Part shown: in pieces, positions 1,413-61,942 of the stretch | How the letters are laid out: every line of letters starts with the position of its first letter | Position numbering within the stretch: position 1 is the stretch's first letter | From: Candidatus Egerieisoma sp. | Lineage (GTDB): Bacteria > Bacteroidota > Bacteroidia > Bacteroidales > UBA932 | Direction of reading: 5' to 3' | Assembly (NCBI GenBank): GCA_045531975.1 | Contig: JAZSEZ010000052.1 | Span: forward strand, 34,870-98,869 | DNA length: 64,000 nucleotides | The notes under the pieces: model-generated | Told to the model about the DNA's origin: nothing | Database searches by the model: none | What the model saw: only the letters and a program-made list of their open reading frames with translations | Made by a program: the position numbers and the translations under genes

Positions 1413-1513
1413 ATGAGTGAGGATTTATCGGGAAGAAAATAATTGACACAAAATAACAACGGGAGCCTCCTTGCACGGAGGTTCTCTTTTTAATTAACCT
1501 AATTTATAAAATT

Positions 1514-3604
1514 ATGAAAAAGTGTAAATTGACACTTACATTGGTGTTATCCCTAATTGTTGCCAATCTGATGGGACAAGAATACACCGGCCCTTTCACC
1601 CATAGTCTTATGAGTGAGAAAGTTTATGACCTGATTGTTGGAGAATCATCGGGAGACAGGGCTTTTTATTACATTATGGATATTGCTCCATACGAGAGAG
1701 ACCGCAAGAGTGCAGACTATAAAGGTCTTTTTATGGAGTCTGTTTATGTTGTAGACAAACTTAAGGCTGCCGGTTTTGAGGAGGCCAAAACTGAGATTGT
1801 TGGAAAATCAAAAACTTGGGATGGTGTTAGTGCAGATGTATGGGAAGTTTCTCCCAATACTGCAAAACTTGCAGATTACAGAGATTTGGCTGCAATGCTT
1901 GGTCAGGGAAGCCAGAATGCTGATGTTACTGCAGAGCTTGCTTGGGTAGGACGCGGCACTCAGGCTGAAATTGATGCGGCTGACCTTAAAGGAAAGATTG
2001 CAGTTACTGAGGCTTCTGCAAGCAGAGTTCACGATTTGGCTGTTAAGGCTGGTGCAGTAGGTATCATCTCTTATTATTCTCCACGTCCTTTGGTTGACCC
2101 TATTCAGATTCCAAACAGCGGTATTAGAGGTGGTGAGAATGCCACTTTCTGTATAAATCTTACCCCAAGAGACGGTTATGTATTGCGTGACCGCCTTCTA
2201 CGTGGCGAGAAAATTACCGTTAAAGCCAAAATTGAGGCTACAACTGAGGAGACAAACATTGAGGTTCCTACTTGTGTAATTAAAGGTGCCAATGAGAATG
2301 CAGAGGAGATTATTCTTTGTGCACATTTGTATGAAGGATATGTGAAACTTGGTGCAAATGACAATATTTCAGGTTCGGCTGCCTTGATTGAGGTTGCACG
2401 CACCTTGAACCAGCTTATTGAGAGCGGCCAGATTGAGAGACCAGCCCGTTCTATCAGATTTATCTGGATTCCTGAGTTCCAGGGGTCTATTCCTTGGGCA
2501 CAGCAGAACAAGGAGATTTTGAGCAGAACATTGTGCAACATAAATCTTGATATGGTTGGTTTGTGGTTGAGCAAGAGCCAGTCTTTCTATTGCCTTCACA
2601 GAACCACTATGGGTAACCCTCATTATTTGAACGATGTGGCAGAGAGTTTCTACCATTATATGGGTGCAACCAACAAATCTTTTGTGGCTACCGGAATGGG
2701 AAGACCTGATGCATTGAAACCTGTAGTAAGTGTTACCGGTTCAAGAGATCCGTTCTACTACTCAATTAACGCACACTACGGTGCTTCAGACCACGAGGTG
2801 TTCAGCGACTGGGGTGTTCAGGCTCCTGGCGTTATTATGATTACCTGGCCGGACAACTACTACCACACTTCAGGTGACCGCCCTGAGATTTGTGACCCTA
2901 CACAGCTTCACAGAGCAATTGTTCTGGCTGCCGCTTCTGCCTATACTATTGCTGATGCAGATGCACAGGATGCAGTTAAGATTGCTTCAGAGGTTGCTGC
3001 AAATGGGGTGAAACGTATGTCAATTAAGATGAAACAGAATCTGGCTGCTATGAATGATGCAAGTGCTGATGAGTTTGCTGCCCTTTACAGAGCTGCCAAA
3101 TTCAATCAGGATGCTATGCTTAACAACGAGATTGCAACATTGGGTACCGTTCTTGAACTTGCCCCTGCAAGCGCTTCCCTTAAAGAGCTTGTTGCAACTA
3201 TGCAGGAGAGTGTAAAAGCTGCCTGGGCTGCAAACAACAAGAATATTGATGCAGCTATGAAAGTTAAGGCTACCGCTCTTGGTGTTGCTCCGTTTAAAGG
3301 TGTTACCCTTACAGCTGCAGAGAAAGCCGCTTCAAAGATATATCCTAAGAGTACTGCAAAGGTTAAGGAGTTCGGTTATGGCGTTTTGAACTCTGTTCCA
3401 AGAGACCTTATGGCAAAATATGGTTTTGCACAGCGCGGTGCGGTTAAGAACGGCGGTGAGATTGCAAAACTTACCACAAACGGCACAAACAGCATTCTTG
3501 ACATTAAGAAGATGCTTGATGCCCAGTTCCCTGCTGCAGACAGCCTTGAAACTGTTACCAAATATATTGAGATGTTGAAAGAAGCAGGGCTTGTTACCTA
3601 CTAA
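1514..3604 (+). CDS. M28 family metallopeptidase with PA domain, secreted
   Basis: Has an N-terminal signal peptide and M28-type motifs NDNISGSAALIEVARTL and HYGASDHEVF. Confidence 0.8.
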   Translation: MKKCKLTLTLVLSLIVANLMGQEYTGPFTHSLMSEKVYDLIVGESSGDRAFYYIMDIAPYERDRKSADYKGLFMESVYVVDKLKAAGFEEAKTEIVGKSKTWDGVSADVWEVSPNTAKLADYRDLAAMLGQGSQNADVTAELAWVGRGTQAEIDAADLKGKIAVTEASASRVHDLAVKAGAVGIISYYSPRPLVDPIQIPNSGIRGGENATFCINLTPRDGYVLRDRLLRGEKITVKAKIEATTEETNIEVPTCVIKGANENAEEIILCAHLYEGYVKLGANDNISGSAALIEVARTLNQLIESGQIERPARSIRFIWIPEFQGSIPWAQQNKEILSRTLCNINLDMVGLWLSKSQSFYCLHRTTMGNPHYLNDVAESFYHYMGATNKSFVATGMGRPDALKPVVSVTGSRDPFYYSINAHYGASDHEVFSDWGVQAPGVIMITWPDNYYHTSGDRPEICDPTQLHRAIVLAAASAYTIADADAQDAVKIASEVAANGVKRMSIKMKQNLAAMNDASADEFAALYRAAKFNQDAMLNNEIATLGTVLELAPASASLKELVATMQESVKAAWAANNKNIDAAMKVKATALGVAPFKGVTLTAAEKAASKIYPKSTAKVKEFGYGVLNSVPRDLMAKYGFAQRGAVKNGGEIAKLTTNGTNSILDIKKMLDAQFPAADSLETVTKYIEMLKEAGLVTY

Positions 3605-3731: not shown

Positions 3732-5361
3732 ATTTTGCTACTGCTCTCTTGTAGGTATCAGAGTAGCCAGGGAACATTGGTTGAGGAGGAACGCGGTCTG
3801 AGTGGCCGTTGTTTTTGAATGAGCCGTCAGGGTTCTGATGTTTGGTGTTTCCGTCAATGAATTTTACAAGAAGGTATTCATCCAATGATTTCCATTTTGC
3901 AAACAGGGCGTCTGCCTGGGAAACTGAGAACTCTGTAAGGTATTTTTGTACAGCTTTGCCGGAACGGAGTTTCAATGCGGCCTCATCAGCAGCAGCAACA
4001 GCCTCCATCATTGCAAGCTCGTGTGCATCAACATTTTCACGCACCTCTTTACCAATATGGTTGTAGCGCAAATATGCAAACTGTGCAATACGGTTCTGCA
4101 ACCAGAACATAGAGGTAGGTGAGTACTCCAACATACTTCCGTTGCCAAGGGCGTAATGCTCTGAAATTCCATTTATGCAAGTGTAGAATGGAGACAATGG
4201 AGATGTGCCGGCATCATCAACAGCAAACCAGAACAAACCGCCAATTTCATCTGGCAACCATCCGCGGCATTGTCCTACAAACCAGAAACCGGTCTGCTGG
4301 GTAGCAATTGCACGCTCGTTCAATCCCTTTTTGCCGTCAATTACATATGAAGAAGGTCTCCAACGGTAAGGCAACTCATTTCCACCTGCAGCAATTCCAA
4401 TAGTCATATCAAACTCGGTACCCTCATAATGGTCGCGCATCATATCTGCCACATCCTTAACGGAAAGTTTCTCTTTAGCCTTAACATACAAAGGCATACG
4501 GTTTTTAGGATTGTCGCCGCGGGCAAAATCAAGATATTTGTCCATATCTTCTGCGCCGTGTTTGCGGAAGAAGCTCCATACACGTGCCTCACAAGATCTC
4601 ATACCTGAAAAATCAAGCGGACCGTAAGTATCGGCAAAGCTGAAATCGCTTCCGTCACCCTCATAAAGGCCACACTCGCGGGCGTGATCCACTACATCTG
4701 CAGCATAAAGGCAGTTCTGCGGATCATCCTTAGGGAATGTGGTAATTCTGGCACAATTGGCGTGTGCAGAGATATAACCGTCGGGAATACGGATTGCCAC
4801 CCAAACGGCACCCTTGTTAAGGTTCACCCCATTCTCATATTTTGGTTTGCGCGCAATAATGTCCATAAACCACACCTCATTCTTATCTGCAAATGAAATG
4901 GATTCTCCTCCCGATGCATATCCGTATTCATCTGCCAGTGCAGTGAAAATTTCAATTGCCTCGCGGGCAGTTTTGGCCCTCTGCAGGGTAATGTATATCA
5001 ACGAACCATAATCCAGAATTGCAGTAGTATCCCTGAACTCCTCAAGGCCACCCCAAGTGGATTCTCCAATAAGAACCTGGTGTTCATTCATATTCCCGAT
5101 AACATTATAAGTATACTCTACCTGAGGAATATATCCCAAGAATCGCTCTTTTCCCCACTCCCTAACTTCAATCATTTCACCTTTCTTATGGAATCCGCGT
5201 GGCATATAAACCAATGTGCCGTAACGTGTATGCGAGTCTGCAGCATAACTTACCATAACCGAACCATCCTTACTGGCCCCCTTGGAAATCAATAGATTGG
5301 TACACGCAAAAGCCTCTGCTGTAAAAAGTGCCACCAATAATATGCATATAAGTTTTTTCAT
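3730..5361 (-). CDS. C69 family dipeptidase
   Basis: A signal peptide is followed by the Cys nucleophile context AFACTNLLISKGASKDGSVM, typical of peptidase C69. Confidence 0.85.
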   Translation of the reverse strand: MKKLICILLVALFTAEAFACTNLLISKGASKDGSVMVSYAADSHTRYGTLVYMPRGFHKKGEMIEVREWGKERFLGYIPQVEYTYNVIGNMNEHQVLIGESTWGGLEEFRDTTAILDYGSLIYITLQRAKTAREAIEIFTALADEYGYASGGESISFADKNEVWFMDIIARKPKYENGVNLNKGAVWVAIRIPDGYISAHANCARITTFPKDDPQNCLYAADVVDHARECGLYEGDGSDFSFADTYGPLDFSGMRSCEARVWSFFRKHGAEDMDKYLDFARGDNPKNRMPLYVKAKEKLSVKDVADMMRDHYEGTEFDMTIGIAAGGNELPYRWRPSSYVIDGKKGLNERAIATQQTGFWFVGQCRGWLPDEIGGLFWFAVDDAGTSPLSPFYTCINGISEHYALGNGSMLEYSPTSMFWLQNRIAQFAYLRYNHIGKEVRENVDAHELAMMEAVAAADEAALKLRSGKAVQKYLTEFSVSQADALFAKWKSLDEYLLVKFIDGNTKHQNPDGSFKNNGHSDRVPPQPMFPGYSDTYKRAVAK

Positions 5362-5433: not shown

Positions 5434-6603
5434 ATGCATATTTTTAGATTTCTACCGGTTATTGCCGCATCACTTGTGATGCTTCTTTCCTGTACCCCAA
5501 CACGTGAGCAGCGTACAGACGAGGCACTGAAAGTTATTATGGATGAATATAATACTGTTGGCCTTGCAGTTGCAGTTGTAAAGGATGGCAAGTTCATTTA
5601 CAACAAATCTTTCGGATACAAAGATCTTGCAAACAAAATTCCATTGCAGAACGGTGATATAGTTAGAATTGCATCGGCTTCAAAGTCATTTACCGCTACA
5701 GGTCTGATGCAGCTTGTAGATAAAGGGCTCGTCTCTCTTGATGATGATGTAAGTGACCTTATAGGTTTCAGAGTGAGAAACCCTCATCATCCAAATACTC
5801 CAATTACCCTTAGAATGATTCTGTCCCATACAGCCAGCATAAATGACAACGGGGAAAACTATTTTACATTGGACCACATTAACCCGGCAGTTAACGGTGA
5901 TTGTGCAGATGCCTACTTCACATATGGTCCGGGTGAGGGGTACAACTACTCAAATATGGGTATGAACCTTGCCGGAGCAATACTTGAAAAGATATCGGGA
6001 GTAAGATTTGACAATTATATTAGAGATAATATCATCAAACCTCTGGGCCTGTACGGCGGGCATAATGTTGATTCTTTGGATGCCAGCAGGTTTGCCCTTA
6101 TTTACAAGAATGTGGATGGCGAGTGGGTAGCCTCTGACGGCCCTTACAAAAGCAGGGCTGAGGATATGCCGGGTTATATTTTGGGATATTCTGCACCAAT
6201 CTTTTCCCCTACCGGAGGTGTTAAAATGTCTGTAGAGGATTTGGCAAAATATGTGATGATGCACATTAACTACGGCCAGCTGAACGGCGTGCGCATTATC
6301 TCTGAAGAGAGTTCAAGAATTATGCAGACTCCTGTTCCGTTTACCAAAGGGGATGCCAAAAACACATACTGCCTTGGCCTGGGTGAATTCCCATACCAGA
6401 CAGATGAGCCAAAATACAATGTTCCTGGCAATTACCTTATAGGGCACTCTGCCGGCTCATACGGCCTCAGCGGAATTATGCTGTGGAGCCCTTCAGACAA
6501 ATGGGGTATGGTTGCAATGGCAACCGGCCTCACCCCTGTACCGGGCAAAAGTTTCCTTCAGCGCATTGCTACTGATGTTTACCACGCCTGTGTGGAGGAG
6601 TAA
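5434..6603 (+). CDS. serine hydrolase, beta-lactamase-related (S12-like) lipoprotein
   Basis: Has the S-x-x-K motif SASKSF and the lipobox-like LLSC. Confidence 0.75.
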   Translation: MHIFRFLPVIAASLVMLLSCTPTREQRTDEALKVIMDEYNTVGLAVAVVKDGKFIYNKSFGYKDLANKIPLQNGDIVRIASASKSFTATGLMQLVDKGLVSLDDDVSDLIGFRVRNPHHPNTPITLRMILSHTASINDNGENYFTLDHINPAVNGDCADAYFTYGPGEGYNYSNMGMNLAGAILEKISGVRFDNYIRDNIIKPLGLYGGHNVDSLDASRFALIYKNVDGEWVASDGPYKSRAEDMPGYILGYSAPIFSPTGGVKMSVEDLAKYVMMHINYGQLNGVRIISEESSRIMQTPVPFTKGDAKNTYCLGLGEFPYQTDEPKYNVPGNYLIGHSAGSYGLSGIMLWSPSDKWGMVAMATGLTPVPGKSFLQRIATDVYHACVEE

Positions 6604-6610
6604 TTTCTTC

Positions 6611-6633
6611 TTCCCGATAGTTTCTGTCGGGAA
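6611..6633. repeat. inverted pair of the over-represented TTCCCGAYA motif
   Basis: TTCCCGATAGTTTCTGTCGGGAA forms a hairpin immediately 5' of the terminator at 6644. Confidence 0.8.
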
Positions 6634-6643
6634 TATGATAAAG

Positions 6644-6671
6644 AAGGTGGTCTTTTGGGGACCACCTTTTT
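6644..6671. terminator. rho-independent terminator between convergent genes
   Basis: AAGGTGGTCTTTTGGGGACCACCTTTTT. Confidence 0.75.
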
Positions 6672-6690: not shown

Positions 6691-7878
6691 TCAGTTCAAT
6701 TTTTGGATATCCAAACCCGTAGGGCTCTGGAATATTTTCAGATCAAAGATGTGAAGCATTGCCAGAATATGGTCAAACACCTCTCCCTGCAGATGCTCAT
6801 ACCTCAACCAGGCAGTGTCTGCAGAGAAGAAATAAAGTTCAACAGGAATACCCTGAGGTGTTGGCTGCAACTGACGCACCAACATAGTCATCTCCTTGTG
6901 TACCTTAGGGTGGTTCTTTATGTAATACTCCAGATAATGTCTGAAAATATAAAGGTTAACCTCCTCTTTACCTGTAGCCTCAAATCCCTCCATCCACGGC
7001 TGTTTTCTGAAATTCTCCATCTCCTGGGCAGTGCAGAAGCGCACGGTATGCATATCAATGTTAATTGATCTCTTAATACGTCTGCCGCCTATATCAAACA
7101 TACCTCTCCAGTTCTGGAAAGAATCATTGACCAGGGCATAAGGTGGAACTGTTGTAATGGTCTTGTCCCAGTTGCGCACTTTAACAGTTGTTAGAGTAAC
7201 CTCTATTACATCACCATCTGCGCCATATTTGGGAACTGTAATCCAGTCGCCAGGGCGCAACATGTCATTAACCATAAGCTGTATACCGGCAACCAAGCCT
7301 TTTATGGTATCCTGGAACACCAACATAAGAATGGCGGTACCGGCACCCAAACCAGTTAAAACGGCAATTGGATTTTTATCTATAAGGGTGCTTATGATTA
7401 TTATTGCCCCAATACATACAACTACCAGTTTGAGCATCTGATAAAACCCTTTCAATGAATGGTCTTTCAGTTTCTCGTGCTGGGATGACATATTGTAGAT
7501 AGAATCTATAAATGCAAATACCAGTTTTACAGCCACTATGGTAATGTAAATCCAGCAGAACTTAAGGATAAATACCCTCAATGACGGCTCATCATGCAAT
7601 GCAAATGGGATGAGGGTATAAATTACAATTGGAGCCACAAGTCTGCATACACTTGCCAGAACCTCATCGCTGAGCAAATAGTCATCCCAGCTGTTTTCTG
7701 TTTTTGAAGTGACCTTACGGATTGTTGGGATAATTATCCTCTTGCACACCTTGTTAAGAACAAATGCCACAATCAGAATTGCAGCAATAGCCCCAACCTT
7801 AAGCAACAATGTTATATATTCCTCTGCAACACCCAACTGCTGTAGCCATTGGGCCAAACCATTATCTATTGTTTCCAT
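6691..7878 (-). CDS. mechanosensitive ion channel (MscS family) protein
   Basis: Has N-terminal TM helices plus the MscS beta-domain segment GDWITVPKYGADGDVIEVTLTTVKVRNWDKTITTVP. Confidence 0.8.
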   Translation of the reverse strand: METIDNGLAQWLQQLGVAEEYITLLLKVGAIAAILIVAFVLNKVCKRIIIPTIRKVTSKTENSWDDYLLSDEVLASVCRLVAPIVIYTLIPFALHDEPSLRVFILKFCWIYITIVAVKLVFAFIDSIYNMSSQHEKLKDHSLKGFYQMLKLVVVCIGAIIIISTLIDKNPIAVLTGLGAGTAILMLVFQDTIKGLVAGIQLMVNDMLRPGDWITVPKYGADGDVIEVTLTTVKVRNWDKTITTVPPYALVNDSFQNWRGMFDIGGRRIKRSINIDMHTVRFCTAQEMENFRKQPWMEGFEATGKEEVNLYIFRHYLEYYIKNHPKVHKEMTMLVRQLQPTPQGIPVELYFFSADTAWLRYEHLQGEVFDHILAMLHIFDLKIFQSPTGLDIQKLN

Positions 7879-8027: not shown

Positions 8028-8272
8028 ATGACAAGAATAGAGTATGAAAAAAAGACAGTAGAGACAATGATCCGCCTCTACTGCAAATTGCATAAGCACA
8101 ACAACGGCCAGCCATTGTGTGAAGATTGCTCCCAACTGTTGGTATATGCCCCATCCACTGTTACACCCCCCGTATGCGTGAACAGATGCGCGCCGTAATG
8201 CGCTTCTGTGGCCCCCGAATGATACTTTACCACCCCATAATGGCAATCAGGCACCTTTGGGCAGAGAGGTAA
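8028..8272 (+). pseudogene. nitrous-oxide-stimulated-promoter (YgbA-like) family gene, disrupted by internal deletion and frameshift
   Basis: The N-terminal part MTRIEYEKKTVETMIRLYCKLHKHNNGQPLCEDCSQLLVYA is in one frame. The C-terminal part CPIHCYTPRMREQMRAVMRFCGPRMILYHPIMAIRHL is in another frame starting at 8147. The roughly 18-aa Cys-rich middle segment of the family is missing. Confidence 0.55.
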
Positions 8273-8900
8273 TCGGTAAGCTCTTTAGCTTTTCTATCTC
8301 CCTCTGCAACAGCTCCAGGAACGTTGCGCCGTGCCCGCCATCCATTTGGGAATGGTGGAACTGGAATGAGATTGGGAGGGTTGTCCTGAACCACCCCTTG
8401 CGGTATTTGCCCCACATTACCATTGGGTTGTTGAACTTGTCTGTGTGCTGATTAACAATGCAGTCCAACTCTGTCTGCACCATTGCAGAGGTTCCCACAA
8501 TCATATAATCCTCCAGAAATGTACTTTTGCACTCGGCTGAGGCCTGCGCTGTAAGGCTCTGGTATGCCTCAACAAACTCTTTCACATCACCCGTAAATGG
8601 GATATCACAAGAATTGATTCCCCCTTTGCAGTTGTTTACAATCACATTTATAGCTATGCTATCAAACTTGTACAGTTTGTCTTTATCGGGAAGAAGATAG
8701 AACTCCTCCATTTGGGTTGCTGCCTTTCCAATGCACCAGCAGAGGAGGGCGTTGAATTTCATTCCCAACTTCCGGCTTGCCTTAAGCAAGTTGCTCACAT
8801 CAAAGGTTTTGGTAAGAGTAACCATTGGCATAGGCGAGGTCATCCACATCTGGAATGCCTCTGCCCTGGTTGTATCTTGTGGATTTACTTCTGTTCTCAT
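8247..8900 (-). CDS. chloramphenicol acetyltransferase (type A CAT) family protein
   Basis: Has the catalytic-site context FQFHHSQMDGGHG. Length is 217 aa. Confidence 0.75.
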   Translation of the reverse strand: MRTEVNPQDTTRAEAFQMWMTSPMPMVTLTKTFDVSNLLKASRKLGMKFNALLCWCIGKAATQMEEFYLLPDKDKLYKFDSIAINVIVNNCKGGINSCDIPFTGDVKEFVEAYQSLTAQASAECKSTFLEDYMIVGTSAMVQTELDCIVNQHTDKFNNPMVMWGKYRKGWFRTTLPISFQFHHSQMDGGHGATFLELLQREIEKLKSLPITSLPKGA

Positions 8901-8949
8901 ACTTCAAAGATACAGTTTATTGCCGCTTCCTGCAATTCAACAAATCATA

Positions 8950-9004
8950 TTCCCGACAGAATCATCGGGAATAAAAAGCCTCCCCACCATCAGGCAGAGA
9001 GGCT
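8950..9004. repeat. 55-bp direct repeat copy A (motif hairpin plus terminator hairpin)
   Basis: TTCCCGACAGAATCATCGGGAATAAAAAGCCTCCCCACCATCAGGCAGAGAGGCT matches 9933-9987 at 53 of 55 positions. Confidence 0.9.
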
Positions 9005-9064
9005 TTCTACCTCCTCAATTGCAGTTAAAATATCATGCAACGATTTCTTTACCACATCATCCAT
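8990..9064 (-). pseudogene. remnant (24 codons) of a HEPN/DUF86 toxin gene
   Basis: MDDVVKKSLHDILTAIEEVESLSA* overlaps the upstream nucleotidyltransferase stop by 8 nt (ATGGATGA). This matches the DUF86 N-terminal pattern, and the ORF ends inside repeat copy A. Confidence 0.55.
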
Positions 9065-9362
9065 AGATTAACATTTTTGAAGAATCAATACTCTTTCTTA
9101 AATATGGGTTCCTGATAGCCTGCTCTTCAAGCAAATCTACCTCTCTACCCAAAACTTCCTGCAAGGAATCTTTCAGGTTATAATAATTGTCAAAATAATC
9201 CGAGATATCTTCTTTATTAAAATCGACAACAAGATCAATATCGCTCTCCTTGTTAAATCTCTCAGTAAGGATTGAGCCAAACACAAACAACTTGTTCACC
9301 TTGTACATCTGGCACAAAGCAATAATCGTCTGCATATTTCTCTCAATCAATTTCATAAACAA
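9057..9362 (-). CDS. nucleotidyltransferase-domain protein (MNT-type antitoxin)
   Basis: Has the minimal NTase motif FGSILTERFNKESDIDLVVDF. Length is 101 aa. Confidence 0.75.
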   Translation of the reverse strand: MFMKLIERNMQTIIALCQMYKVNKLFVFGSILTERFNKESDIDLVVDFNKEDISDYFDNYYNLKDSLQEVLGREVDLLEEQAIRNPYLRKSIDSSKMLIYG

Positions 9363-9720
9363 GGATTTTCACAAATAAACAATTTTTCTTTTAAAGAGTT
9401 ATCCCACAAAAAATCCCGACAGTTCTTCAACCGTCAGGATTTTATAAACACTATCTCTAAACTTTTCCCCTCCTCCGTTGTTATATAGATGAAATAGTTT
9501 TTTAAGTTAGGTTAAGTCGGGCAGACCCTGCAGCTTCGGGATGAGGTTGTGGGGTTTGTTTTTCTTCTCTACAAGTGAATAAGTATATCCTTAATACGTG
9601 TTAAGACTTGGGGCAATGTATCTTTACATCACCCCCTTCATCAACGAAACTAAAATACCCAACCCTAAGTAACTATTAAATGGTCAGGTAGCGTCATCCA
9701 TAATTGAGAGAGCATTATAC

Positions 9721-9865: not shown

Positions 9866-9932
9866 AGGAATCACCATCAGCAGGGCAAACAACAAAAAAG
9901 GCGGCCTCAAAAAGACCACCTTCTCTATCTTT

Positions 9933-9987
9933 TTCCCGACAGAATCATCGGGAAGAAAAAGCCTCCCCACCATCAGGCGGAGAGGCT
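9933..9987. repeat. 55-bp direct repeat copy B; also the likely terminator of the GGGtGRT operon
   Basis: Matches 8950-9004 at 53 of 55 positions. On the minus strand it reads AGCCTC..GAGGCTTTTT directly after the stop at 10021. Confidence 0.9.
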
Positions 9988-10020
9988 ATATACAATAATT
10001 TGTTTTCTCCTAAGAGTCAA

Positions 10021-11034
10021 TTATTTTGCAAGTGCAGTAGCAACATCCACAGCAACAGCAACAGTTGCACCTACCATTGGGTTGTTACCAATTCCTAGGA
10101 AGCCCATCATCTCAACGTGGGCAGGAACTGATGAAGAACCTGCAAACTGAGCGTCTGAGTGCATACGGCCCATTGTGTCGGTCATACCGTATGATGCAGG
10201 ACCTGCAGCCATGTTGTCTGGGTGAAGGGTTCTACCTGTACCGCCACCTGAAGCAACTGAGAAATATTTCTTGCCAAGTTCCATGCACTCTTTTTTGTAA
10301 GTACCTGCAACTGGGTGCTGGAAACGGGTTGGGTTGGTTGAGTTACCAGTGATTGATACGTCAACGCCCTCAAGGTGCATAATTGCAACACCCTCGCGTA
10401 CGTCGTCTGCGCCGTAGCAGTTAACTTTTGCGCGTGGACCGTCTGAGTAAGCAATTTTGTTTACTACTTTAACCTCACCTGTAGCGTAGTCAAACTCAGT
10501 CTGGCAGTAAGTAAAGCCGTTGATTCTTGAAATGATCATAGCAGCGTCTTTACCCAAACCGTTAAGGATACAACGTAGAGGCTCTTTTCTTACTTTGTCT
10601 GCTTTAGCTGCAATTTTGATTGCACCCTCTGCAGCAGCAAATGACTCGTGACCTGCCAAGAAAGCGAAACATTTTGTCTCCTCTCTTAGTAGACGGGCTG
10701 CAAGGTTACCGTGGCCGATACCTACTTTACGGTCGTCAGCTACTGAACCTGGTACGCAGAATGACTGCAAACCAAGACCAATTGCCTCAGCTGCGTCAGC
10801 AGCGTTTGAGCAACCTTTCTTAAGTGCAATTGCAGCACCTACTACGTAAGCCCATTTTGCATTCTCAAAACAGATTGGCTGAGTCTCCTCGCAAGTTTTG
10901 TATGGATCCAAGCCATACTGCTCGCAAATCTCGTTAGCCTCCTCTATACTTTTAATACCGTTAGCATTCAATGCAGCAAGAATCTGCGGCATTCTACGGT
11001 CCTGACTCTCAAATTTTACTTCTCTAATAGCCAT
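10021..11034 (-). CDS. GGGtGRT family protein (function unknown)
   Basis: Carries the signature SGGGTGRTLHPDN. Start is taken at MAIREVKF, which follows an AGGAAAGGAAA stretch and avoids overlap with the upstream gene. Confidence 0.75.
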   Translation of the reverse strand: MAIREVKFESQDRRMPQILAALNANGIKSIEEANEICEQYGLDPYKTCEETQPICFENAKWAYVVGAAIALKKGCSNAADAAEAIGLGLQSFCVPGSVADDRKVGIGHGNLAARLLREETKCFAFLAGHESFAAAEGAIKIAAKADKVRKEPLRCILNGLGKDAAMIISRINGFTYCQTEFDYATGEVKVVNKIAYSDGPRAKVNCYGADDVREGVAIMHLEGVDVSITGNSTNPTRFQHPVAGTYKKECMELGKKYFSVASGGGTGRTLHPDNMAAGPASYGMTDTMGRMHSDAQFAGSSSVPAHVEMMGFLGIGNNPMVGATVAVAVDVATALAK

Positions 11035-11047
11035 TTTCCTTTCCTCC

Positions 11048-14741: not shown

Positions 14742-14812
14742 CTTAATGGAATCCGGTTGCCGACTTTGCTTGGCGAATGTCGGTTACCGGGTTTCCCCTA
14801 TTAAAAAACTAT

Positions 14813-17017: not shown

Positions 17018-17049
17018 AAAAAAAGAGGCCTTGCGGCCTCTTTTTTTTA
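17016..17049. terminator. bidirectional rho-independent terminator
   Basis: AAAAAAAAAGAGGCCTTGCGGCCTCTTTTTTTT between convergent genes. Confidence 0.85.
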
Positions 17050-18543: not shown

Positions 18544-18590
18544 CTCTAAAGAATTTATATCTTGCAAAGATAGTGAGAAATAAGTTAATA

Positions 18591-19409: not shown

Positions 19410-19433
19410 TAGTGGTAATTAAATTATTTGTAT

Positions 19434-23755: not shown

Positions 23756-23768
23756 CGGGAAGAAAAAA

Positions 23769-41849: not shown

Positions 41850-41933
41850 AAACTTTATATTTATCGGGAAGAATATTCCCCAAAATGCCACGCAAGATAA
41901 GAAATATTTTACATAAGTGTTTCCCCAAATGGT

Positions 41934-49476: not shown

Positions 49477-49593
49477 AATCCTTTCCCCTCAATCCCACCC
49501 GGGCCAATTTGGTGGAAACATTGAAGTCTTTTACAAAGATTGCAATATTTTTTGCCCATTCCAAATCTTTTCTTCCCGATAAATCTTCACATA

Positions 49594-53306: not shown

Positions 53307-55760
53307 ATGAAAAAACTGTTTCTACTTATTGCTTTGGCAGTTTGCTCTTTGGCGTATGCACAGCAGACTCCGGTTACCAAAGCAAATTATGATTTGGCAG
53401 AGAGATTTTCTGCAAAGAAAGTTGGCCAGATGGTTTTCTCTACAGATGTAAGGCCTAACTGGTTCAAGAATTCAGACAAGTTCTGGTATTCTTACAAAAC
53501 TACAAACGGTACTGAGTACTATATTGTAGACCCTGTTGCCGGAACAAAAAGAAAAGCTTGGGATATGGGCAAACTTGCAGCCCAAATCTCTTCAATTACA
53601 AAAGATCCGTTTGATGCACAGCACCTTCCTATTGAGAAACTGGAGCTTACAGACAACGACAAAGCTTTTGAATTTGAAATCAGGACCTCTATAATGGTTC
53701 CTAAAAAAGAGAAACCTGGTGAGAAAAAACCTGCCAAAGGGGCAAAAGAGAAGAAAGTTTTCCGTTTCAAATATGACATTGCTTCAGGCAAACTTACAGA
53801 TATAACAGAGCAGGAGAAAGAGAAGGATTACCCAAGATGGGCAAATATTTCTCCCGACGGAAAATACGCTGTATACGGAAAGAACTACAACCTTTGGTAT
53901 ATGGATATGGAGAACCTTAAGAAAGCAATGGAGAATGAGAAAGATTCAACAATTGTAGAGTTCCAGCTTACCAAAGACGGTACCAAAGAGTTCCCATACG
54001 CAGGTAGAGGAATGTATGGCGGAAACCACGAGGAGGATACCACAAAACGTACAGGTGCAAGCCTTGCATGGTCTCCAGACTCAAAACACTTTGCAATTAC
54101 CAGAAGCGATATGCGCAAGGTTAAAGAGTTGTGGGTAATTGATGTACTTGCAAATCCTCGTCCCAAATTGGAGGGTTACAAATATCAGATGCCTGGCGAG
54201 CCTGGTCCTAAGGTACATATGTACTTGTTTGATTTTGCAGCAAAAACTTCAAAAACCATAAATATTGATGCTTTCAAAGACCAGTCTGTAGGTATCCTAA
54301 GAGAGCCTGTTACAATTACAGAGCGTACTTATATGGATTGGGTTCCTGCAAAATGGTTGGGAGACAACAGCAAGTTCTACTTTGAGCGTCAGAGCAGAGA
54401 CCAGAAGAGGGTAGATATATGTACCGTAGATGTGGCTACCGGTGAGTGCAAAGTTGTTTTGCACGAGGAGTTGAATACATACGTTGAAACAAGAGACCCT
54501 AAATTCTTCAACAACGGCTCTGAGTTTGTATTCTGGTCTGAGAGAGACGGTTGGGCACACTTGTACTTGTATGGTGCAGACGGTACACTTAAAAACCAGA
54601 TTACCAGCGGTGAGTTCCACGTTGACCAGATTTTGGGTGTAGATGCAGCCAAGAGAGTTGTATACTTTACAGCTTGTGGAAAAGAGAAAGGGATTAACCC
54701 TTACTATATGTATGCTTACAGCGCAAACTTGGACGGCAGCAATGTGAAGCTTTTGAACAAAGGTGACTTTGACAACAAAGTGAATATGTCTGACAACAAC
54801 AAATACTTTGTAAACAACTACTCAAGAGTTGACTGCACTCCTAAAACTGCACTTTACGACAATACCGGCCGTAAGGTTATGGATTTGGAGGAGGCTGATT
54901 TGAGCCAGCTGTTTGCCCGCGGATACAAATTCCCTGAAATCTTTACAGTTAAAGCAGGAGACGGCATTACAGACCTTTACGGTGTAATGTACAAACCTTT
55001 TGATTTTGACTCAACCAAACTTTACCCTATCATTGAGTATGTATATCCTGGTCCTCAGACAGAGGCCAACAACTCTTCTTGGACAAAGAGTATGGACAGA
55101 GTAGACCGCCTTGCCCAGCTTGGATTCATTGTTGTAACTGTAGGTAACAGAGGAGGACACCCTAACCGCTCTAAATGGTACCACAACTTTGGTTACGGCA
55201 ACCTTAGAGATTATGGTTTGGAGGATAAGAAAGTTACCGTTCAGCAGCTTGCAGCACGCCATCCGTTCATAAACGGCAACAAAGTTGGTATCCACGGCCA
55301 CTCAGGTGGAGGATTTATGTCTACAGCAGCAATCCTTAAGTACCCTGATTTCTTCTCGGCAGCTGTATCTTGTGCAGGTAACCACGACAACAATATCTAC
55401 AACCGCTGGTGGAGTGAGCAGCATCACGGAGTATTGGAGGAGATATCTGAAAAAGGTGACACTACTTTCAAATATAGTATAAACACCAACCAGCAATTGG
55501 CTAAGAACCTTAAAGGAAATTTGTTGTTGGTTCACGGTGATATAGACAATAATGTACACCCAGGTAATACTATCAGAGTGGTAGACGCACTTATAAGAGC
55601 AAACAAACGTTTCCAGATGCTTATCCTTCCGGGACAGAGACACGCATTTGGTGATATGACAGAATATTTCTTCTGGAGAATGGCAGACCATTTCTGCGAG
55701 TATCTGATTGGAGATTCCCAGAAAGAGCAGATAGACATCAAACAAATGAATAACAACTAG
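53307..55760 (+). CDS. S9B (dipeptidyl-peptidase IV-like) serine peptidase, secreted
   Basis: Start is taken at MKKLFLLIALAVCSLAYAQ. It has a DPPIV-type N-terminal propeller region plus GHSGGG, HGDIDNNV and GQRHAF. Confidence 0.8.
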   Translation: MKKLFLLIALAVCSLAYAQQTPVTKANYDLAERFSAKKVGQMVFSTDVRPNWFKNSDKFWYSYKTTNGTEYYIVDPVAGTKRKAWDMGKLAAQISSITKDPFDAQHLPIEKLELTDNDKAFEFEIRTSIMVPKKEKPGEKKPAKGAKEKKVFRFKYDIASGKLTDITEQEKEKDYPRWANISPDGKYAVYGKNYNLWYMDMENLKKAMENEKDSTIVEFQLTKDGTKEFPYAGRGMYGGNHEEDTTKRTGASLAWSPDSKHFAITRSDMRKVKELWVIDVLANPRPKLEGYKYQMPGEPGPKVHMYLFDFAAKTSKTINIDAFKDQSVGILREPVTITERTYMDWVPAKWLGDNSKFYFERQSRDQKRVDICTVDVATGECKVVLHEELNTYVETRDPKFFNNGSEFVFWSERDGWAHLYLYGADGTLKNQITSGEFHVDQILGVDAAKRVVYFTACGKEKGINPYYMYAYSANLDGSNVKLLNKGDFDNKVNMSDNNKYFVNNYSRVDCTPKTALYDNTGRKVMDLEEADLSQLFARGYKFPEIFTVKAGDGITDLYGVMYKPFDFDSTKLYPIIEYVYPGPQTEANNSSWTKSMDRVDRLAQLGFIVVTVGNRGGHPNRSKWYHNFGYGNLRDYGLEDKKVTVQQLAARHPFINGNKVGIHGHSGGGFMSTAAILKYPDFFSAAVSCAGNHDNNIYNRWWSEQHHGVLEEISEKGDTTFKYSINTNQQLAKNLKGNLLLVHGDIDNNVHPGNTIRVVDALIRANKRFQMLILPGQRHAFGDMTEYFFWRMADHFCEYLIGDSQKEQIDIKQMNNN

Positions 55761-57512: not shown

Positions 57513-57549
57513 TACAATGTATACCACGCAAATAAATAACCTGTTATAT

Positions 57550-58845
57550 ATGAAAAAACTATTTACCACTCTTGCCGCTGCAGTTGTATCACTTACACTT
57601 TGCGCCTGCGGACAAACTCAAGACCAGGCAGCTGCTCAGGCTCCTGAAACAACCCCTGCTCCAAGCAATGCTATGGGAACATTCCCTGGAGAGGAGAATA
57701 TGAACTACGCAACAGATATCCTTACCGGAGCACAACAGGTAGAAGAATACCTTAAACTTGTAGAGGGCAAACGCCTATGCGTACTTTCAAACCAGTCTGG
57801 AATGGCATCTGCTACAGCTCACGTATTGGATACCCTATTGGCTCACAACGTAAAAGTTACTTGCATTATGTCACCTGAGCACGGATTCAGAGGCGATGCC
57901 GATGCCGGTGAGCACGTATCAAGTTCAACAGACCCTAAAACCGGTATTCCAATCCGCTCACTATATGAGGGAAAAACAGGCAAACCTTCACCAGAAGTAA
58001 TGAAAGAGTTTGACGTTCTTGTATTTGACCTTCAGGATGTGGGAGTAAGATTCTACACATACTACGTAACAATGGTTAAAATGATGGCTGCCTGCGCAAT
58101 TGACGGCAAAGAGTTCATTGTACTTGACCGCCCTAACCCTATAGGATTCTACGTAGACGGTCCTATCCTTGATATGGAGAAATACAAATCAGGCGTTGGA
58201 AGCCTTCCAATCCCTGTTGTACACGGTATGACCCTTGGTGAGATAGCATATATGGCTAACGAGAAAGACTGGTTGAAACACGGTCACAAAGATGCTGCAG
58301 GCAAAAAAGTTGACCTTAAAGTTGTAAAATGCCAGAATTACACCCACGCAAAACTATACAGATTGCCTATCAAGCCATCTCCAAACTTGGGCGATATGAG
58401 AGCAATCTACCTTTACCCTTCAACCTGCTACTTTGAGGGAACCCCTGTAAGCCTTGGCCGCGGTACTGCAAAAGCATTCCAGATGTACGGCCACCCAAAT
58501 ATGTTGGGCTACAAATACAGCTTCACCCCAAGAAGCATCCCTGGAGCAAAAAATCCTCCTCTATTGGATAAAGAGTGCTGGGGCGTAGACCTTACAACCA
58601 ACCCTTCAATTGAGCAGATTAATGCAGACGGTATCAACTTGGAGTACATTGTAGATGCATACACCAACCTTAACCTTGGCGACCACTTCTTCCGCAATAT
58701 GTTTGAGCTTGAGATTGGCCAGGCATACGTAAGAAAAATGATTAAAGAGGGTAAATCTGCCAAAGAGATTGAGGCAATGTGGACAGAAGACGTGGAGAAA
58801 TTCAAACAGGAGAGAAAACCTTACCTTCTATACCCGGAAAACTAA
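57550..58845 (+). CDS. DUF1343 family protein (exo-beta-N-acetylmuramidase NamZ-like) lipoprotein
   Basis: Has the lipobox LTLCACG. The length and segments (VLSNQSGM, PEHGFRGD, FDLQDVGVRFYTY, LDRPNP) resemble DUF1343/NamZ proteins. Confidence 0.6.
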   Translation: MKKLFTTLAAAVVSLTLCACGQTQDQAAAQAPETTPAPSNAMGTFPGEENMNYATDILTGAQQVEEYLKLVEGKRLCVLSNQSGMASATAHVLDTLLAHNVKVTCIMSPEHGFRGDADAGEHVSSSTDPKTGIPIRSLYEGKTGKPSPEVMKEFDVLVFDLQDVGVRFYTYYVTMVKMMAACAIDGKEFIVLDRPNPIGFYVDGPILDMEKYKSGVGSLPIPVVHGMTLGEIAYMANEKDWLKHGHKDAAGKKVDLKVVKCQNYTHAKLYRLPIKPSPNLGDMRAIYLYPSTCYFEGTPVSLGRGTAKAFQMYGHPNMLGYKYSFTPRSIPGAKNPPLLDKECWGVDLTTNPSIEQINADGINLEYIVDAYTNLNLGDHFFRNMFELEIGQAYVRKMIKEGKSAKEIEAMWTEDVEKFKQERKPYLLYPEN

Positions 58846-58870
58846 GATTCTCTTCCCGACAGAAACATTC

Positions 58871-58895: not shown

Positions 58896-58975
58896 GCATA
58901 TGCACCATTCCCCAACTGACACTCCAGTGCGATTGGGGCACGTTTCGGGGCAGATTTGTTCCCCAACAGGCACCA

Positions 58976-59025
58976 GAAAACACTTCGGGCACAGAATCGT
59001 ATGATTTTGTGCCCGAAGTGTTTTC
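58976..59025. repeat. perfect 18-bp stem hairpin downstream of uvrA
   Basis: GAAAACACTTCGGGCACA, a 14-nt loop, then TGTGCCCGAAGTGTTTTC. The 3' arm runs straight into a CTTCCCGACAGA motif copy. Confidence 0.85.
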
Positions 59026-59055
59026 TTCCCGACAGATTCCGCTCACCCCCCGCCT

Positions 59056-61884
59056 TTACCCAAAAATTTCCTTAAGGAACTGCCCCGTATAAGAGTGCGG
59101 GCAAGCGGCAACCTGCTCAGGGGTTCCTTGGGCAATAATCTGACCGCCACCGGCACCACCTTCAGGGCCCATATCTACCAACCAGTCCACACATTTGAGC
59201 ACATCAAGGTTGTGTTCTATCACTACAACTGTATTTCCTTGCTCCACAATCTTATGCAATACACCAAGAAGAATTTTTATATCCTCAAAATGCAATCCTG
59301 TGGTAGGCTCATCCAAAATATAGATACTGTTACCAGTCCCTTTTTTGGACAATTCTGTTGCCAGTTTCACCCTCTGGCTCTCTCCACCGCTCAACGTTGT
59401 TGATGGCTGGCCAAGTTTTATATAGCCCAATCCCACATCATTAAGGGCCTTTATCTTTTGGGCAATTGAAGGTACCGGTTCAAAGAATTCCACAGCCTCC
59501 GCTATGGTCATCTCCAGTACATCATTTATGCTCTTGCCTTTATATTTTACAGCCAAAGTCTCGTGATTGTACCTCTTTCCGTTGCACTCTTTACAATGTA
59601 CATACACACTTGGAAGGAAATTCATCTCTACGGTTTCCACTCCTGCCCCCTTGCAGGTTTCGCAACGCCCACCCTTTACATTAAAGGAGAAACGTCCAGC
59701 CTTGAATCCGCGCACTTTGGCGTCGGGAGTATTCTCAAACAACTTCCTTATATCTCCAAACACATTGGTGTAGGTTGCCGGATTGCTGCGTGGGGTACGC
59801 CCAATGGGGCTCTGGTCCACTACAATAAGTTTGTCTATATTCTCCAACCCCTCAATTCCGGTATATGGAAGAGGGTTTGCCAATGAGCGGTAGAAATGTT
59901 TGCTCAAAATTGGCATCAGGGTTTCATTTATAAGGGTAGATTTTCCGCTGCCGCTCACACCGCTAACCCCCACAAAACATCCCAAAGGAAGTTTTAAGTC
60001 TACCCCTTTAAGATTATTTCCGGTTGCCCCAAACAGCTCCAGGAACTTGCCGTTTCCTGCGCTGCGGGCAGCAGGTATCTCTATTTTGCGCACACCCCTC
60101 AAATAATCTGCGGTAAAGCTGTTGAGTTTATGCAGCTCATCCAAAGGCATCTGATAAACCCCCTCAGGTTTGCCGTTATAAAGCAGCTTGCCGCCGTGTG
60201 CACCTGCCCCTGGACCAAGGTCTATGAGCCAGTCGCTCTCTCTAATCATCTCCTCATCGTGCTCAACCACCATTACAGAGTTCCCTTCATCACGCAACCG
60301 TTTAAGGGAAGCAATCAGTTTTCTGTTATCCCTTTGGTGCAGGCCAATACTCGGCTCATCCAAAATGTACAATACATTCACCAGTTTGCTTCCTATTTGG
60401 GTTGCAAGTCTTATTCGCTGGCTCTCTCCTCCACTAAGGCTGCGGGTAGCACGCCCCAATGAGAGGTAATTCAACCCCACCTGCTGCAAGAACCCAACCC
60501 TGTCCCTCAGCTCCTTAAGGATATCCTGGGCAATAAGGTTCTGTTTAGGTGATAATTTATAGGGAAGAGACTCTATCCACTGGGCCAGCTGGTCTATATC
60601 CAATGCACTTACCTGTGCAATATCTTTATCATCTATTTTAAAATAAAGGGCATCCTTTTTAAGGCGGTTGCCTCCACACTCCGGACACTCCACCTCCTCT
60701 ATGAAACGCTCTTTTTTCTCACTTATCTCCTCATTGTTCTGCTCCAGCTTTGAGATTACCCCTGCAAATGGGGCAAGCTGGGTGCCATCAGTAAGATTTA
60801 CCCTAAAGAGTTCATCGGTACCGTAAATTATCATATCCAGCACCTCTTGCGGCAACTCCTTAACCGGTACATTAAGTGAGAATTCGTGCACCTTGGCCAT
60901 ACTCTCCAAAATGCGGAACCAGTTGTTGTCTTTATATGGCCCCAACGGTTCAAATGCCCCCTGCAAAATACTCTTGGATGGGTTAGGGATAATCTTCCCC
61001 ATATCTATACGTGAAATATAACCCAAGCCTTTGCATTTTGGACAGGCTCCCTGAGGGGAATTGAATGAGAATGTATGAGGTGCAGGCTCGGGGAATGAAA
61101 GTCCGCTCTCCGGGCACATAAGATGTTTGCTCAAGAACCTCAACGGAGTGGAATCTATATCCTCCTGTTTCTCAAAATTAAGGATAGCCATTGTCCCTTT
61201 ACCCTGCTCCAGCGCCTGCCCAACAGAATTTGCAATACGCTTGTAATCCTCTTGTTGAGGAACCAGCTTGTCTATTACAAGCTCTATGAAGTGGGTTTTA
61301 TAACGGTCCAACGGATCTACATCTGCCAGATAGAACATCTCCCCATCTATCCTTATCTGCTGGTAACCCTTCCTTACAAGTGATTCAAACAGCTCTTTAT
61401 AATGACCTTTTCTACCTACCACAAGGGGGGCCAGAACAATACATTTCTTTCCGGCATATTCATCAAGGATAAGTGAAACAATCTGCTCGTTGGTATATTT
61501 CACCATTGGCTTGCCCGTTGCAGGAGAATAAGCTACAGAAGCCTTTGCATAAAGCAGACGCAAAAAATCGTAAATCTCTGTAATTGTGCCTACTGTAGAA
61601 CGGGGATTCTTGCCGGTAGTCTTCTGCTCAATTGCAATAATAGGGCTGAGTCCCGTAATGGAATCTACGGCCGGACGCTCCAGTATGCCAATAAATTGCC
61701 TTGCATATGCAGAAAGGGTCTCCATATAGCGGCGCTGCCCCTCTGCATAAATTGTATCAAAAGCCAATGAAGATTTGCCACTGCCGCTCAACCCTGTAAC
61801 CGTAACAAGCCTGTTGCGCGGAATGGTAACATTCACCCCCTTAAGATTGTGCACCCTTGCACCTGTAACCTCAATTTTATCCAT
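59056..61884 (-). CDS. uvrA: excinuclease ABC subunit A
   Basis: Has two ABC modules (GLSGSGKSSL, GVSGSGKST, LSGGESQR twice) and the zinc-finger motifs CPECGG and CETCKGAG. Length is 942 aa. Confidence 0.95.
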   Translation of the reverse strand: MDKIEVTGARVHNLKGVNVTIPRNRLVTVTGLSGSGKSSLAFDTIYAEGQRRYMETLSAYARQFIGILERPAVDSITGLSPIIAIEQKTTGKNPRSTVGTITEIYDFLRLLYAKASVAYSPATGKPMVKYTNEQIVSLILDEYAGKKCIVLAPLVVGRKGHYKELFESLVRKGYQQIRIDGEMFYLADVDPLDRYKTHFIELVIDKLVPQQEDYKRIANSVGQALEQGKGTMAILNFEKQEDIDSTPLRFLSKHLMCPESGLSFPEPAPHTFSFNSPQGACPKCKGLGYISRIDMGKIIPNPSKSILQGAFEPLGPYKDNNWFRILESMAKVHEFSLNVPVKELPQEVLDMIIYGTDELFRVNLTDGTQLAPFAGVISKLEQNNEEISEKKERFIEEVECPECGGNRLKKDALYFKIDDKDIAQVSALDIDQLAQWIESLPYKLSPKQNLIAQDILKELRDRVGFLQQVGLNYLSLGRATRSLSGGESQRIRLATQIGSKLVNVLYILDEPSIGLHQRDNRKLIASLKRLRDEGNSVMVVEHDEEMIRESDWLIDLGPGAGAHGGKLLYNGKPEGVYQMPLDELHKLNSFTADYLRGVRKIEIPAARSAGNGKFLELFGATGNNLKGVDLKLPLGCFVGVSGVSGSGKSTLINETLMPILSKHFYRSLANPLPYTGIEGLENIDKLIVVDQSPIGRTPRSNPATYTNVFGDIRKLFENTPDAKVRGFKAGRFSFNVKGGRCETCKGAGVETVEMNFLPSVYVHCKECNGKRYNHETLAVKYKGKSINDVLEMTIAEAVEFFEPVPSIAQKIKALNDVGLGYIKLGQPSTTLSGGESQRVKLATELSKKGTGNSIYILDEPTTGLHFEDIKILLGVLHKIVEQGNTVVVIEHNLDVLKCVDWLVDMGPEGGAGGGQIIAQGTPEQVAACPHSYTGQFLKEIFG

Positions 61885-61942
61885 TACTTAACTCTCCTCT
61901 TCCCGATAATTTTATCTCTGTTCCCTCTATCCCACATCCCCA

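Follow-up and report, generated by a model that had tools for sequence, protein, structure and literature searches.

A short DNA word, TCTTCCCGAYA, over-represented in one lineage of gut Bacteroidales and possibly acting as a DNA uptake signal

The stretch of DNA analysed here, called the window below, comprises 64,000 nucleotides (64 kb) of contig JAZSEZ010000052.1, from a genome recorded as 'Candidatus Egerieisoma sp.'. It is ordinary chromosome, about 90% coding and uniform in G+C content with no island visible, and it carries cysS, ssb, mutL, uvrA, umuCD-like genes, ispF, and many genes for peptidases and outer-membrane proteins. The subject of this work is a short word, CTTCCCGA on one strand and TCGGGAAG on the other, which is scattered through these genes and the DNA between them. 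The window has 25 exact copies; 12 are plus-strand and 13 minus-strand copies, intermingled along its length. The original prediction, made by inspection of the window, had listed 22 copies split evenly between the strands; all 22 coordinates are exact matches and the strand symmetry holds, but three copies (8686, minus; 24781, plus; 31437, minus) had been missed. The four one-mismatch copies that it named (6627, 8949, 8965, and 9932) are also present. In dinucleotide-preserving shuffles the word occurred 1.19 times on average and four times at most, and Markov models of order 1 to 4 gave an expectation of 0.6 to 2.6 for the window. The enrichment is 20-40-fold, and the word ranks first by frequency among the 8-mers of the window.

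The 8-mer, which had been taken as the unit of the motif, is not the true one. TCCCGA occurs 54 times in the window and is followed by C in 29 cases, T in 24, A in one, and G in none, giving 53 TCCCGAY against a single TCCCGAR; the next position is a purine in all 53 TCCCGAY sites. The invariant core is TCCCGAYR and the best form is TCTTCCCGAYA, with upstream preferences for T at -1 (70%), C at -2 (51%), and T at -3 (87%) relative to the core. A weak A/T pattern extends upstream to about -7 and a weak R-W-T follows downstream, and the alignment columns are random outside about -7 to +10. The approximate consensus is aTnwTCTTCCCGAYArwt; it spans about 17 nt and combines a hard core with softer flanks, and families seeded with the motif in repeat finding were 60-80% identical immediately outside it. 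Because conservation stops at about 17 nt, the motif does not belong to a family with longer conserved flanks and is not a long dispersed repeat, except for the two 67-nt copies described below. Three intergenic copies (1428, 27855, and 49572) lie within identical 17-mers, TTTTCTTCCCGATAAAT, as had been noted. There is about one core site per 1.2 kb and about one CTTCCCGA per 2.6 kb. Hand arithmetic on the site positions showed gaps between core sites consistent with a Poisson process, so that no motif-free island can be called in the window. Same-strand pairs at a spacing of 34 nt were found twice and treated as chance.

Genic core sites occur in all three reading frames, as had been predicted, but very unevenly, and a frame bias of this kind is itself known for uptake sequences. 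Among the 20 sites in the sense direction, 18 are read as xxT CCC GAY (Pro-Asp), often as CTT CCC GAY (Leu-Pro-Asp, LPD). Those that match CTTCCCGA are the LPD copies at 8686-8693 (-; CTT CCC GAT) in the open reading frame (ORF) 8247-8900, 31437-31444 (-) in ORF 30251-32260, 47580-47587 (+) in ORF 47148-48320, 48860-48867 (-) in ORF 48502-49476, and 53067-53074 (+) in ORF 52764-53261, together with two in minority frames at 34242-34249 (-) in ORF 32283-35249 and 41864-41871 (-) near the start of the ROK ORF 40890-41891. The sense sites with the core only all encode Pro-Asp: 1250-1256 (+), 4780-4786 (-), 12272-12278 (+), 30419-30425 (-), 42664-42670 (+), 43970-43976 (-), 45367-45373 (+; mutL), 48688-48694 (-), 59722-59728 (-; uvrA), 63090-63096 (-), and three that fall in the peptide SPDG (14983-14989, 15709-15715, and 53852-53858, all +).

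On the antisense side, 13 of 18 copies are read as TCG GGA (Ser-Gly), often within YTR TCG GGA AGA (Leu-Ser-Gly-Arg, LSGR). Full CTTCCCGA copies of this kind lie at 12729-12736 (-; Ser-Gly) in the S9 peptidase ORF 11859-14741, 15341-15348 (-; TCG GGA AGA, Ser-Gly-Arg) in the S9 peptidase ORF 14777-17017, and, as LSGR, at 18020-18027 (+; TTG TCG GGA AGA) in cysS (17047-18594), 28585-28592 (+) in the Mur-ligase-like ORF 28002-29318, 31329-31336 (+) in the sulfatase ORF 30251-32260, and 47025-47032 (-) in the rhomboid ORF 46455-47129. Three others are in minority frames, at 24781-24788 (+) in the umuC-like ORF 24389-25666, 37101-37108 (-) in ORF 36883-37527, and 52234-52241 (-) in ORF 51528-52748. 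Core-only antisense sites encode Ser-Gly at 1648-1654 (-), 4909-4915 (+), 5994-6000 (-), 34386-34392 (+), 41223-41229 (+), 50286-50292 (-), and 52199-52205 (-), and are in minority frames at 5094-5100 (+) and 34352-34358 (+). In total, Pro-Asp or Ser-Gly is encoded at 31 of the 38 genic core sites. SPDG is a signature of the PD40 beta-propeller repeats of S9 peptidases, and core sites coincide with it not only at the three window positions above but also in the related fragment L123 (18, 2582, 3122, and 3281). The conserved SPDG supplies ready-made near-matches, and the core count is therefore inflated in S9 peptidase genes.

The codons at these sites are unusual for the window. CCC makes up 10% of its proline codons, yet it encodes the proline of 25 of the 41 Pro-Asp pairs, where 4 would be expected, and that of only 2 of the 50 Pro-Glu pairs. 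Likewise, TCG accounts for 6% of serine codons, and the pair TCG-GGA was observed 13 times against 1.4 expected. The signature of CCC-GAY plus TCG-GGA was found in every sample of the motif-bearing clade described below and is absent in the outgroup L122. A single peptide of CysS, Y-G-x-L-S-G-R, illustrates this point: its LSGR is encoded by TTR/CTA TCG GGA AGA in all five motif-clade genomes, and by CTC TCG GGA CGC, CTC TCC GGA CGC, TTG TCC GGC CGC, and CTT TCA GGA AGA in four outgroups. Since the outgroups encode the same peptide with other codons, the motif arose by synonymous substitution and not by insertion. Furthermore, the same word is favoured antisense and in intergenic DNA, which a translational codon-pair effect cannot explain. 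The force that keeps the motif acts on the DNA and not on the protein; this had been argued from the frames alone, and the synonymous codons and the orthologues considered below establish it more strongly.

Between genes the motif is about threefold in excess, nine of the 25 CTTCCCGA copies and 15 of the 53 core sites being intergenic against 10% of non-coding DNA; the excess that had been claimed is thus real, although the share first given, about 10 of 22, was too high. Intergenic core sites lie mostly 9-36 nt 3' of a stop codon. The full copies are 1428-1435 (-), 15 nt past the stop of ORF 69-1412 and within TTTTCTTCCCGATAAAT; 6610-6617 (+) and 9948-9955 (-), arms of the hairpins described next; 23755-23762 (-), between convergent genes at 35 and 9 nt from their stops; 27855-27862 (+), within TTTTCTTCCCGATAAAT; 49572-49579 (+), between divergent genes and within TTTTCTTCCCGATAAAT; 58852-58859 (+), 9 nt past the stop of ORF 57517-58845; 59025-59032 (+), abutting a hairpin (58975-59026) at 23 nt from the uvrA stop; and 61899-61906 (+), flanked by the start of uvrA and the stop of ORF 61943-62890. 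The intergenic core-only site 18982-18988 (-) lies upstream of ssb, and that at 9414-9420 (+) forms one arm of a hairpin, the opposite arm having degenerated to TCAGGA.

Three convergent inverted pairs of the motif (6612/6626, 8951/8964, and 9934/9947) form stable hairpins at gene 3' ends, whereas single copies showed no folding. The first hairpin (6606-6647; -16.2 kcal/mol, z -3.2) lies between the stops of the convergent ORFs 5434-6603 and 6691-7878, with the CTTCCCGA copy at 6610 as its left arm and the core site 6626-6632 (-; ATTCCCGAC) as its right arm. The other two pairs sit in a duplicated 67-nt element, in which the motif-pair hairpin is followed by a GC-rich hairpin. Copy 1 (8944-9010; z -5.6), 3' of the nucleotidyltransferase ORF 9057-9362, contains the left arm 8951-8957 (+) and the right arm 8964-8970 (-); copy 2 (9927-9993; z -6.6), 91% identical to copy 1 and 3' of ORF 10021-11106, contains the left arm 9934-9940 (+) and the full copy at 9948 as the right arm. 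Such pairs had been described as frequent, which is overstated: the three are real, and tight inverted pairs account for about 2% of the sites in 399 kb of DNA from the clade (4 observed, 0.45 expected).

The motif is not confined to the window. A scan of genome contigs with the 17-mer, using one genome per species, gave at least 117 loci, which are a sample of motif-bearing genomes and not a census. Among the matches listed, the repeatedly matched genomes were all Bacteroidales of the same kind as the window and carried non-seed CTTCCCGA at 0.25-0.5 per kb in 8-kb blocks, whereas 73 loci of other organisms carried it at 0.023 per kb. In several of the repeatedly matched genomes the motif was again the top 8-mer. 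When clade DNA of 15 or more related genomes was pooled (399 kb), 347 core sites were counted; extrapolated to a genome of about 3 Mb, the numbers would be roughly 1000 strong sites and 2500 core sites.

The limits of this spread were examined with the identity of CysS as a phylogenetic yardstick and the ratio of TCCCGAY to TCCCGAR in orthologous 21-kb loci. With 53:1 in the window (CysS 100%, G+C 43.5%, i.e. 44%) for comparison, the ratio was 17:3 in L119 (93%), 22:1 in L120 (82%; G+C 31.7%, i.e. 32%), 24:0 in L121 (80%; G+C 36.3%, i.e. 36%), 16:1 in L123 (79%), and 12:1 in L247 (79%). It was 8:5 in L124 (78%), 12:11 in L125 (76%), 6:6 in L126 (75%), 2:2 in L122 (74%), and 1:1 in L248 (73%). 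More distant Bacteroidales (60-69% identity, 1.01 Mb) showed no enrichment (254:234, with CTTCCCGA at 0.033 per kb). Every relative sampled at 79% CysS identity or above thus showed the enrichment, and those below it did not. L121 comes from assembly GCA_964368585.1 and L122 from GCA_964533215.1; other motif-bearing assemblies are CAAGGO01 (HGM05513), JAZNUT01, and JAZRIV01. These ratios, together with the clade densities, indicate that the feature is genome-wide, common to one lineage, and absent from its neighbours.

Within the lineage the core is unchanged over a G+C range of 32-48%, and the degenerate Y alone tracks composition, being T in AT-rich genomes and C elsewhere, as true degeneracy in a recognition site predicts. 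In L123, TCCCGACA is retained and the CTT prefix is mostly missing; this difference cannot be called a dialect, since only 16 sites were available, of which five fall within the SPDG repeats found in two peptidase genes. Among the motif genomes at 80-93% CysS identity, G+C content spans as much as 16 points (31.7% in L120 to 48% in L051), and the G+C-rich TCCCGA keeps its full density in L120 despite a G+C content of 32%.

Codon-aligned orthologues showed that individual sites are conserved in place. Window sites were retained at 6 of 7 positions in L119, 6 of 7 in L082, 4 of 4 in L120, 5 of 9 in L121, and 4 of 11 in L123, so that in the pool 25 of 38 genic sites were retained, against about 6.9 predicted from control 7-mers; the outgroup L124 retained 1 of 7. 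L082 is the closest reference genome fragment ('Rikenellaceae bacterium HGM05513'; 77-83% DNA identity to the window), and the sites conserved in it are those at 30419, 31329, 31437 (despite diverged flanks), 41223, 41864, and 42664. Moreover, every relative has private sites opposite near-matches of the window, for example GTTGCCGGAAGC opposite GTTTCCCGATGC. Orthologous positions are therefore conserved while new sites are still being gained.

The names attached to these genomes require comment. Exact matches to the proteins of the window come from metagenome assemblies only, and the source is an uncultured member of the Bacteroidales. Records of metagenome-assembled genomes titled 'Candidatus Egerieisoma sp.' (L004, L005, L012, L030, L040, L064, L067, L089, L097, L104, L105, and L110) are Bacteroidales. 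Their GroEL is 90-98% identical to proteins of Bacteroidales or Ca. Egerieousia, and they lack Shine-Dalgarno usage. The genus Egerieisoma was defined for GTDB UMGS1537 (order UBA1212, family UBA1255) and stands under Clostridia in the NCBI taxonomy. A Clostridia lineage sharing the motif, as the labels would imply, was rejected on the basis of GroEL, the missing Shine-Dalgarno usage, and the definition of the genus; the mislabelling is likely due to a mix-up of the names Egerieisoma and Egerieousia.

A scan of viral contigs with TTTCTTCCCGAYAAA gave at least 120 loci, and the non-seed density among the matches listed was 0.047 per kb, near background. A few viral contigs among these matches had 3-4 copies, and the result says nothing on phages of this clade. 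A sequencing artefact was also considered. The Illumina adapter sequence ATCGGAAGAG resembles the motif word without being identical to it, having GG where the motif has GGG, and the motif is conserved in frame across independent assemblies; an adapter origin was accordingly rejected.

Several other elements lie close to motif copies. The two 67-nt direct repeats bracket a 983-bp segment that contains the nucleotidyltransferase ORF 9057-9362 (Polbeta/NTP_transf_2), an 85-nt non-coding element, and palindromes resembling repetitive extragenic palindromic (REP) elements, and the segment has the appearance of a cassette, flanked by terminators, that was inserted or duplicated. The 85-nt element (9477-9563) recurs in L089 (5947-6030 and 7479-7562), L021 (6304-6385), and L036 (715-798), is 84-94% identical between clade genomes, and ends in a hairpin and a T-run, the hairpin having compensatory changes (CCCTGCAG..TGTGGGG versus CCCCGCAG..TGCGGGG). 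The element does not correspond to a tRNA and matched no Rfam family; it may be an undescribed small RNA. The sole TCCCGAR site of the window falls inside it. A separate REP-like family, unrelated in sequence to the motif, consists of inverted copies of CCAAGAGGTTAAGC (9723/9853, 48340/48468, and 49596/49652/49673), which are about 130 nt apart or closer and form long intergenic palindromes; one of these elements is about 15 nt from the motif copy at 49572. The 10-mer CCCCATTTGC/GCAAATGGGG is also over-represented, with six copies on both strands (2999, 30906, 31195, 37117, 41002, and 60764), and the copy at 37117 is 10 nt from the motif at 37101. In the motif-poor L124, a nucleotidyltransferase/HEPN-type gene pair stands beside an Eco57I-like N6-methyltransferase and a HincII-family endonuclease (16891-20105); the window has the same type of pair but without this restriction-modification module.

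What, then, maintains the word? The imprint described above appears to match one that has hitherto been seen only with the uptake signals of Neisseria and Haemophilus. For those signals the imprint comprises high density, occurrence on both strands, pairs at terminators, frame bias, and lineage specificity, and DNA-uptake-enhancing sequences are currently documented only in Neisseriaceae and Pasteurellaceae (bioRxiv 10.1101/2025.10.24.684340). Natural competence is known in Bacteroidota from Porphyromonas gingivalis and Riemerella anatipestifer, in reports that mention no uptake signal (PMC3268665, PMC8459023). Given this match and the occurrence of competence in the phylum, we take uptake-biased molecular drive, with the motif as a DNA-uptake-enhancing sequence, as the likeliest mechanism, while holding this view tentatively and at somewhat less than even confidence.

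Under such a mechanism the motif would be a sequence-specific recognition word on double-stranded DNA, read in either orientation, and a directional process at the DNA level would spread and maintain it throughout the chromosome of one gut Bacteroidales lineage. A surface component of the natural-transformation machinery would preferentially bind fragments that carry the word, and homologous recombination of the imported fragments would convert this bias in uptake into a slow molecular drive. The drive would turn near-matches into matches wherever the protein code permits, that is, at Leu-Pro-Asp, at Leu-Ser-Gly-Arg, and in the DNA just past stop codons, where occasional inverted pairs could double as terminator hairpins. 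We infer the uptake machinery as the reader of the motif by analogy with the known systems. It is a real possibility, at somewhat less than even odds, that the motif-bearing Bacteroidales near 'Ca. Egerieousia' are naturally competent and take up their own DNA by means of TCTTCCCGAYA, which would be the first uptake signal outside Proteobacteria. In that case one would expect a receptor with no relation to ComP/ComN and a system recent enough for its phylogenetic boundary to be datable. The original prediction had stated that no such signal was described for Bacteroidota, and our literature search agreed with it, finding no description of the motif word or of any uptake-signal-like motif in this phylum; the matches were primer coincidences and unrelated papers.

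Several points weigh against an uptake signal. About half of the uptake sequences of Neisseriaceae and Pasteurellaceae are in predicted terminators (bioRxiv 10.1101/2025.10.24.684340), and the tight inverted pairs found here, at about 2% of sites, are far fewer than in these known systems. No competence gene was found among the annotated genes of the window and of the 8-21 kb fragments of relatives. In addition, a degenerate YR step adjoining a 6-bp core is reminiscent of DNA methyltransferase sites. More generally, a genomic imprint by itself cannot separate uptake bias from other processes that favour a word.

The first of these other processes is recognition by another abundant sequence-specific chromosome protein, with the sites kept by weak selection on each of them. 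The protein could be a nucleoid-associated protein, an orientation-independent stimulator of recombination or repair, or one that reads a 'self' mark in defence or repair. An equal imprint is predicted in this case, including constraint at the DNA level, a footprint of about 17 nt with a flexible YR, occurrence on both strands, positional conservation, and restriction to a clade. However, the selected genome-wide words Chi and KOPS (FtsK orienting polar sequences) are strand-skewed and much less enriched than the motif word, and the window is split 12:13. On population-genetic grounds, selection on individual sites would be hard-pressed to keep thousands of them fixed, even at the level of rare synonymous codons, without drive, and no candidate protein was identified. 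We regard this explanation as unlikely, while giving it serious weight.

Somewhat more doubtful is an origin like that of HIP1 (highly iterated palindrome 1), in which a methyltransferase of the clade acting on (T)CCCGAY(R) and Vsr-like short-patch repair would restore the site with no benefit at each position. The asymmetric core of 6-8 bp with a degenerate Y/R and a CpG is typical of methyltransferase specificities, and such a process would likewise be lineage-restricted and strand-independent. Several one-substitution neighbours of the core are depleted by 30-50% relative to the outgroups, including the C-to-T variants TTCCGA and TCTCGA. The depletion is, however, not specific to C-to-T changes, since TCCCGG, TCCGGA, TCCCGC, and TCCCGT are also depleted and TCCCAA is not. 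Conservation also exceeds a methyltransferase site (T at -3, the CTT prefix, and the A/T-rich 3' flank), and the 20-40-fold excess of the 8-mer is far above the effect of Dcm/Vsr in Escherichia coli. The fragments analysed showed neither a methyltransferase nor a vsr gene, and the literature search found no link of the motif word to methylation.

The remaining explanations are very improbable. A signal oriented with replication, like Chi or KOPS, would agree with an over-represented chromosomal 8-mer but hardly with a 12:13 strand split interleaved along 64 kb; no sign of an origin or terminus was found in the window, where G+C is uniform and the skew tracks gene orientation. Still less credible is a core conserved within a short dispersed repeat or within a family of miniature inverted-repeat transposable elements (MITEs) or REP elements inserted genome-wide, which is effectively refuted by flanks that are random past about 17 nt and by copies that are mostly in frame in conserved proteins where the outgroups differ in codons, even though the 67-nt repeat (8944-9010 and 9927-9993) does hold the motif and other REP-like elements occur in the window. 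Equally far-fetched is a by-product of protein composition or of codon-pair preference (Pro-Asp, Ser-Gly, or SPDG): 31 of the 38 genic core sites encode Pro-Asp or Ser-Gly and three are PD40 SPDG, but the number of Pro-Asp pairs is unremarkable (41, compared with 50 Pro-Glu), the oddity lies in the use of the rarest codons, the word is enriched antisense and threefold between genes, and the outgroups encode the same peptides otherwise, so that this explanation is also effectively refuted.

If the motif is an uptake signal, it would be a third, independent case of self-DNA uptake and would mean that this strategy evolves repeatedly. It would also imply natural transformation in abundant uncultured gut commensals, and the 11-17-mer would provide a handle for the design of transformable DNA and for tracking gene flow within the lineage in metagenomes. 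The boundary of the motif is sharp (about 79% versus about 78% CysS identity) with genomes on both sides, and the responsible gene can therefore be sought by phylogenetic profiling; its product might be a receptor, a methyltransferase, or some other protein that binds the word. A word that is enriched 20-40-fold and overrides codon usage at thousands of positions reflects, even if uptake is not involved, a strong force in genome evolution, comparable to that behind HIP1.

Compared with the DNA uptake sequence (DUS, GCCGTCTGAA) and the uptake signal sequence (USS, AAGTGCGGT), the motif shares a hard core with weak flanks, a density of about one per kb with hundreds to thousands of copies on both strands, and genic as well as intergenic placement with an intergenic excess. 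Some terminator hairpin pairs, a strong frame bias in coding copies, restriction to a single lineage, and conserved positions with ongoing gain are also common to them, and there are hints of flank variation between sub-lineages. The motif differs in that its inverted-pair or terminator placement is much rarer, its core has two degenerate positions (Y and R), and its hosts are uncultured gut anaerobes of the phylum Bacteroidota. Since the consensus TCTTCCCGAYA is unrelated in sequence to DUS and USS, the motif is not a member of either series and would be at most an analogous, independent system. HIP1 (GCGATCGC), the hyper-abundant, lineage-restricted palindrome of cyanobacteria, is similar in being an octamer that is kept at the DNA level both inside and outside coding sequence; it is palindromic and overlaps methyltransferase sites, whereas the motif is asymmetric. 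Chi and KOPS/AIMS (architecture imparting sequences) are likewise over-represented chromosomal octamers read by DNA-processing proteins, but they are co-oriented with replication and modestly enriched, in contrast to the strand symmetry (12:13) and 20-40-fold enrichment of the motif. Finally, REP/BIME (bacterial interspersed mosaic element) and MITE families resemble it in that some motif copies lie in intergenic hairpins near gene ends and one 67-nt repeat holds a motif pair, whereas the motif itself has no conservation past about 17 nt and most of its copies are in-frame genic sites that arose by substitution.

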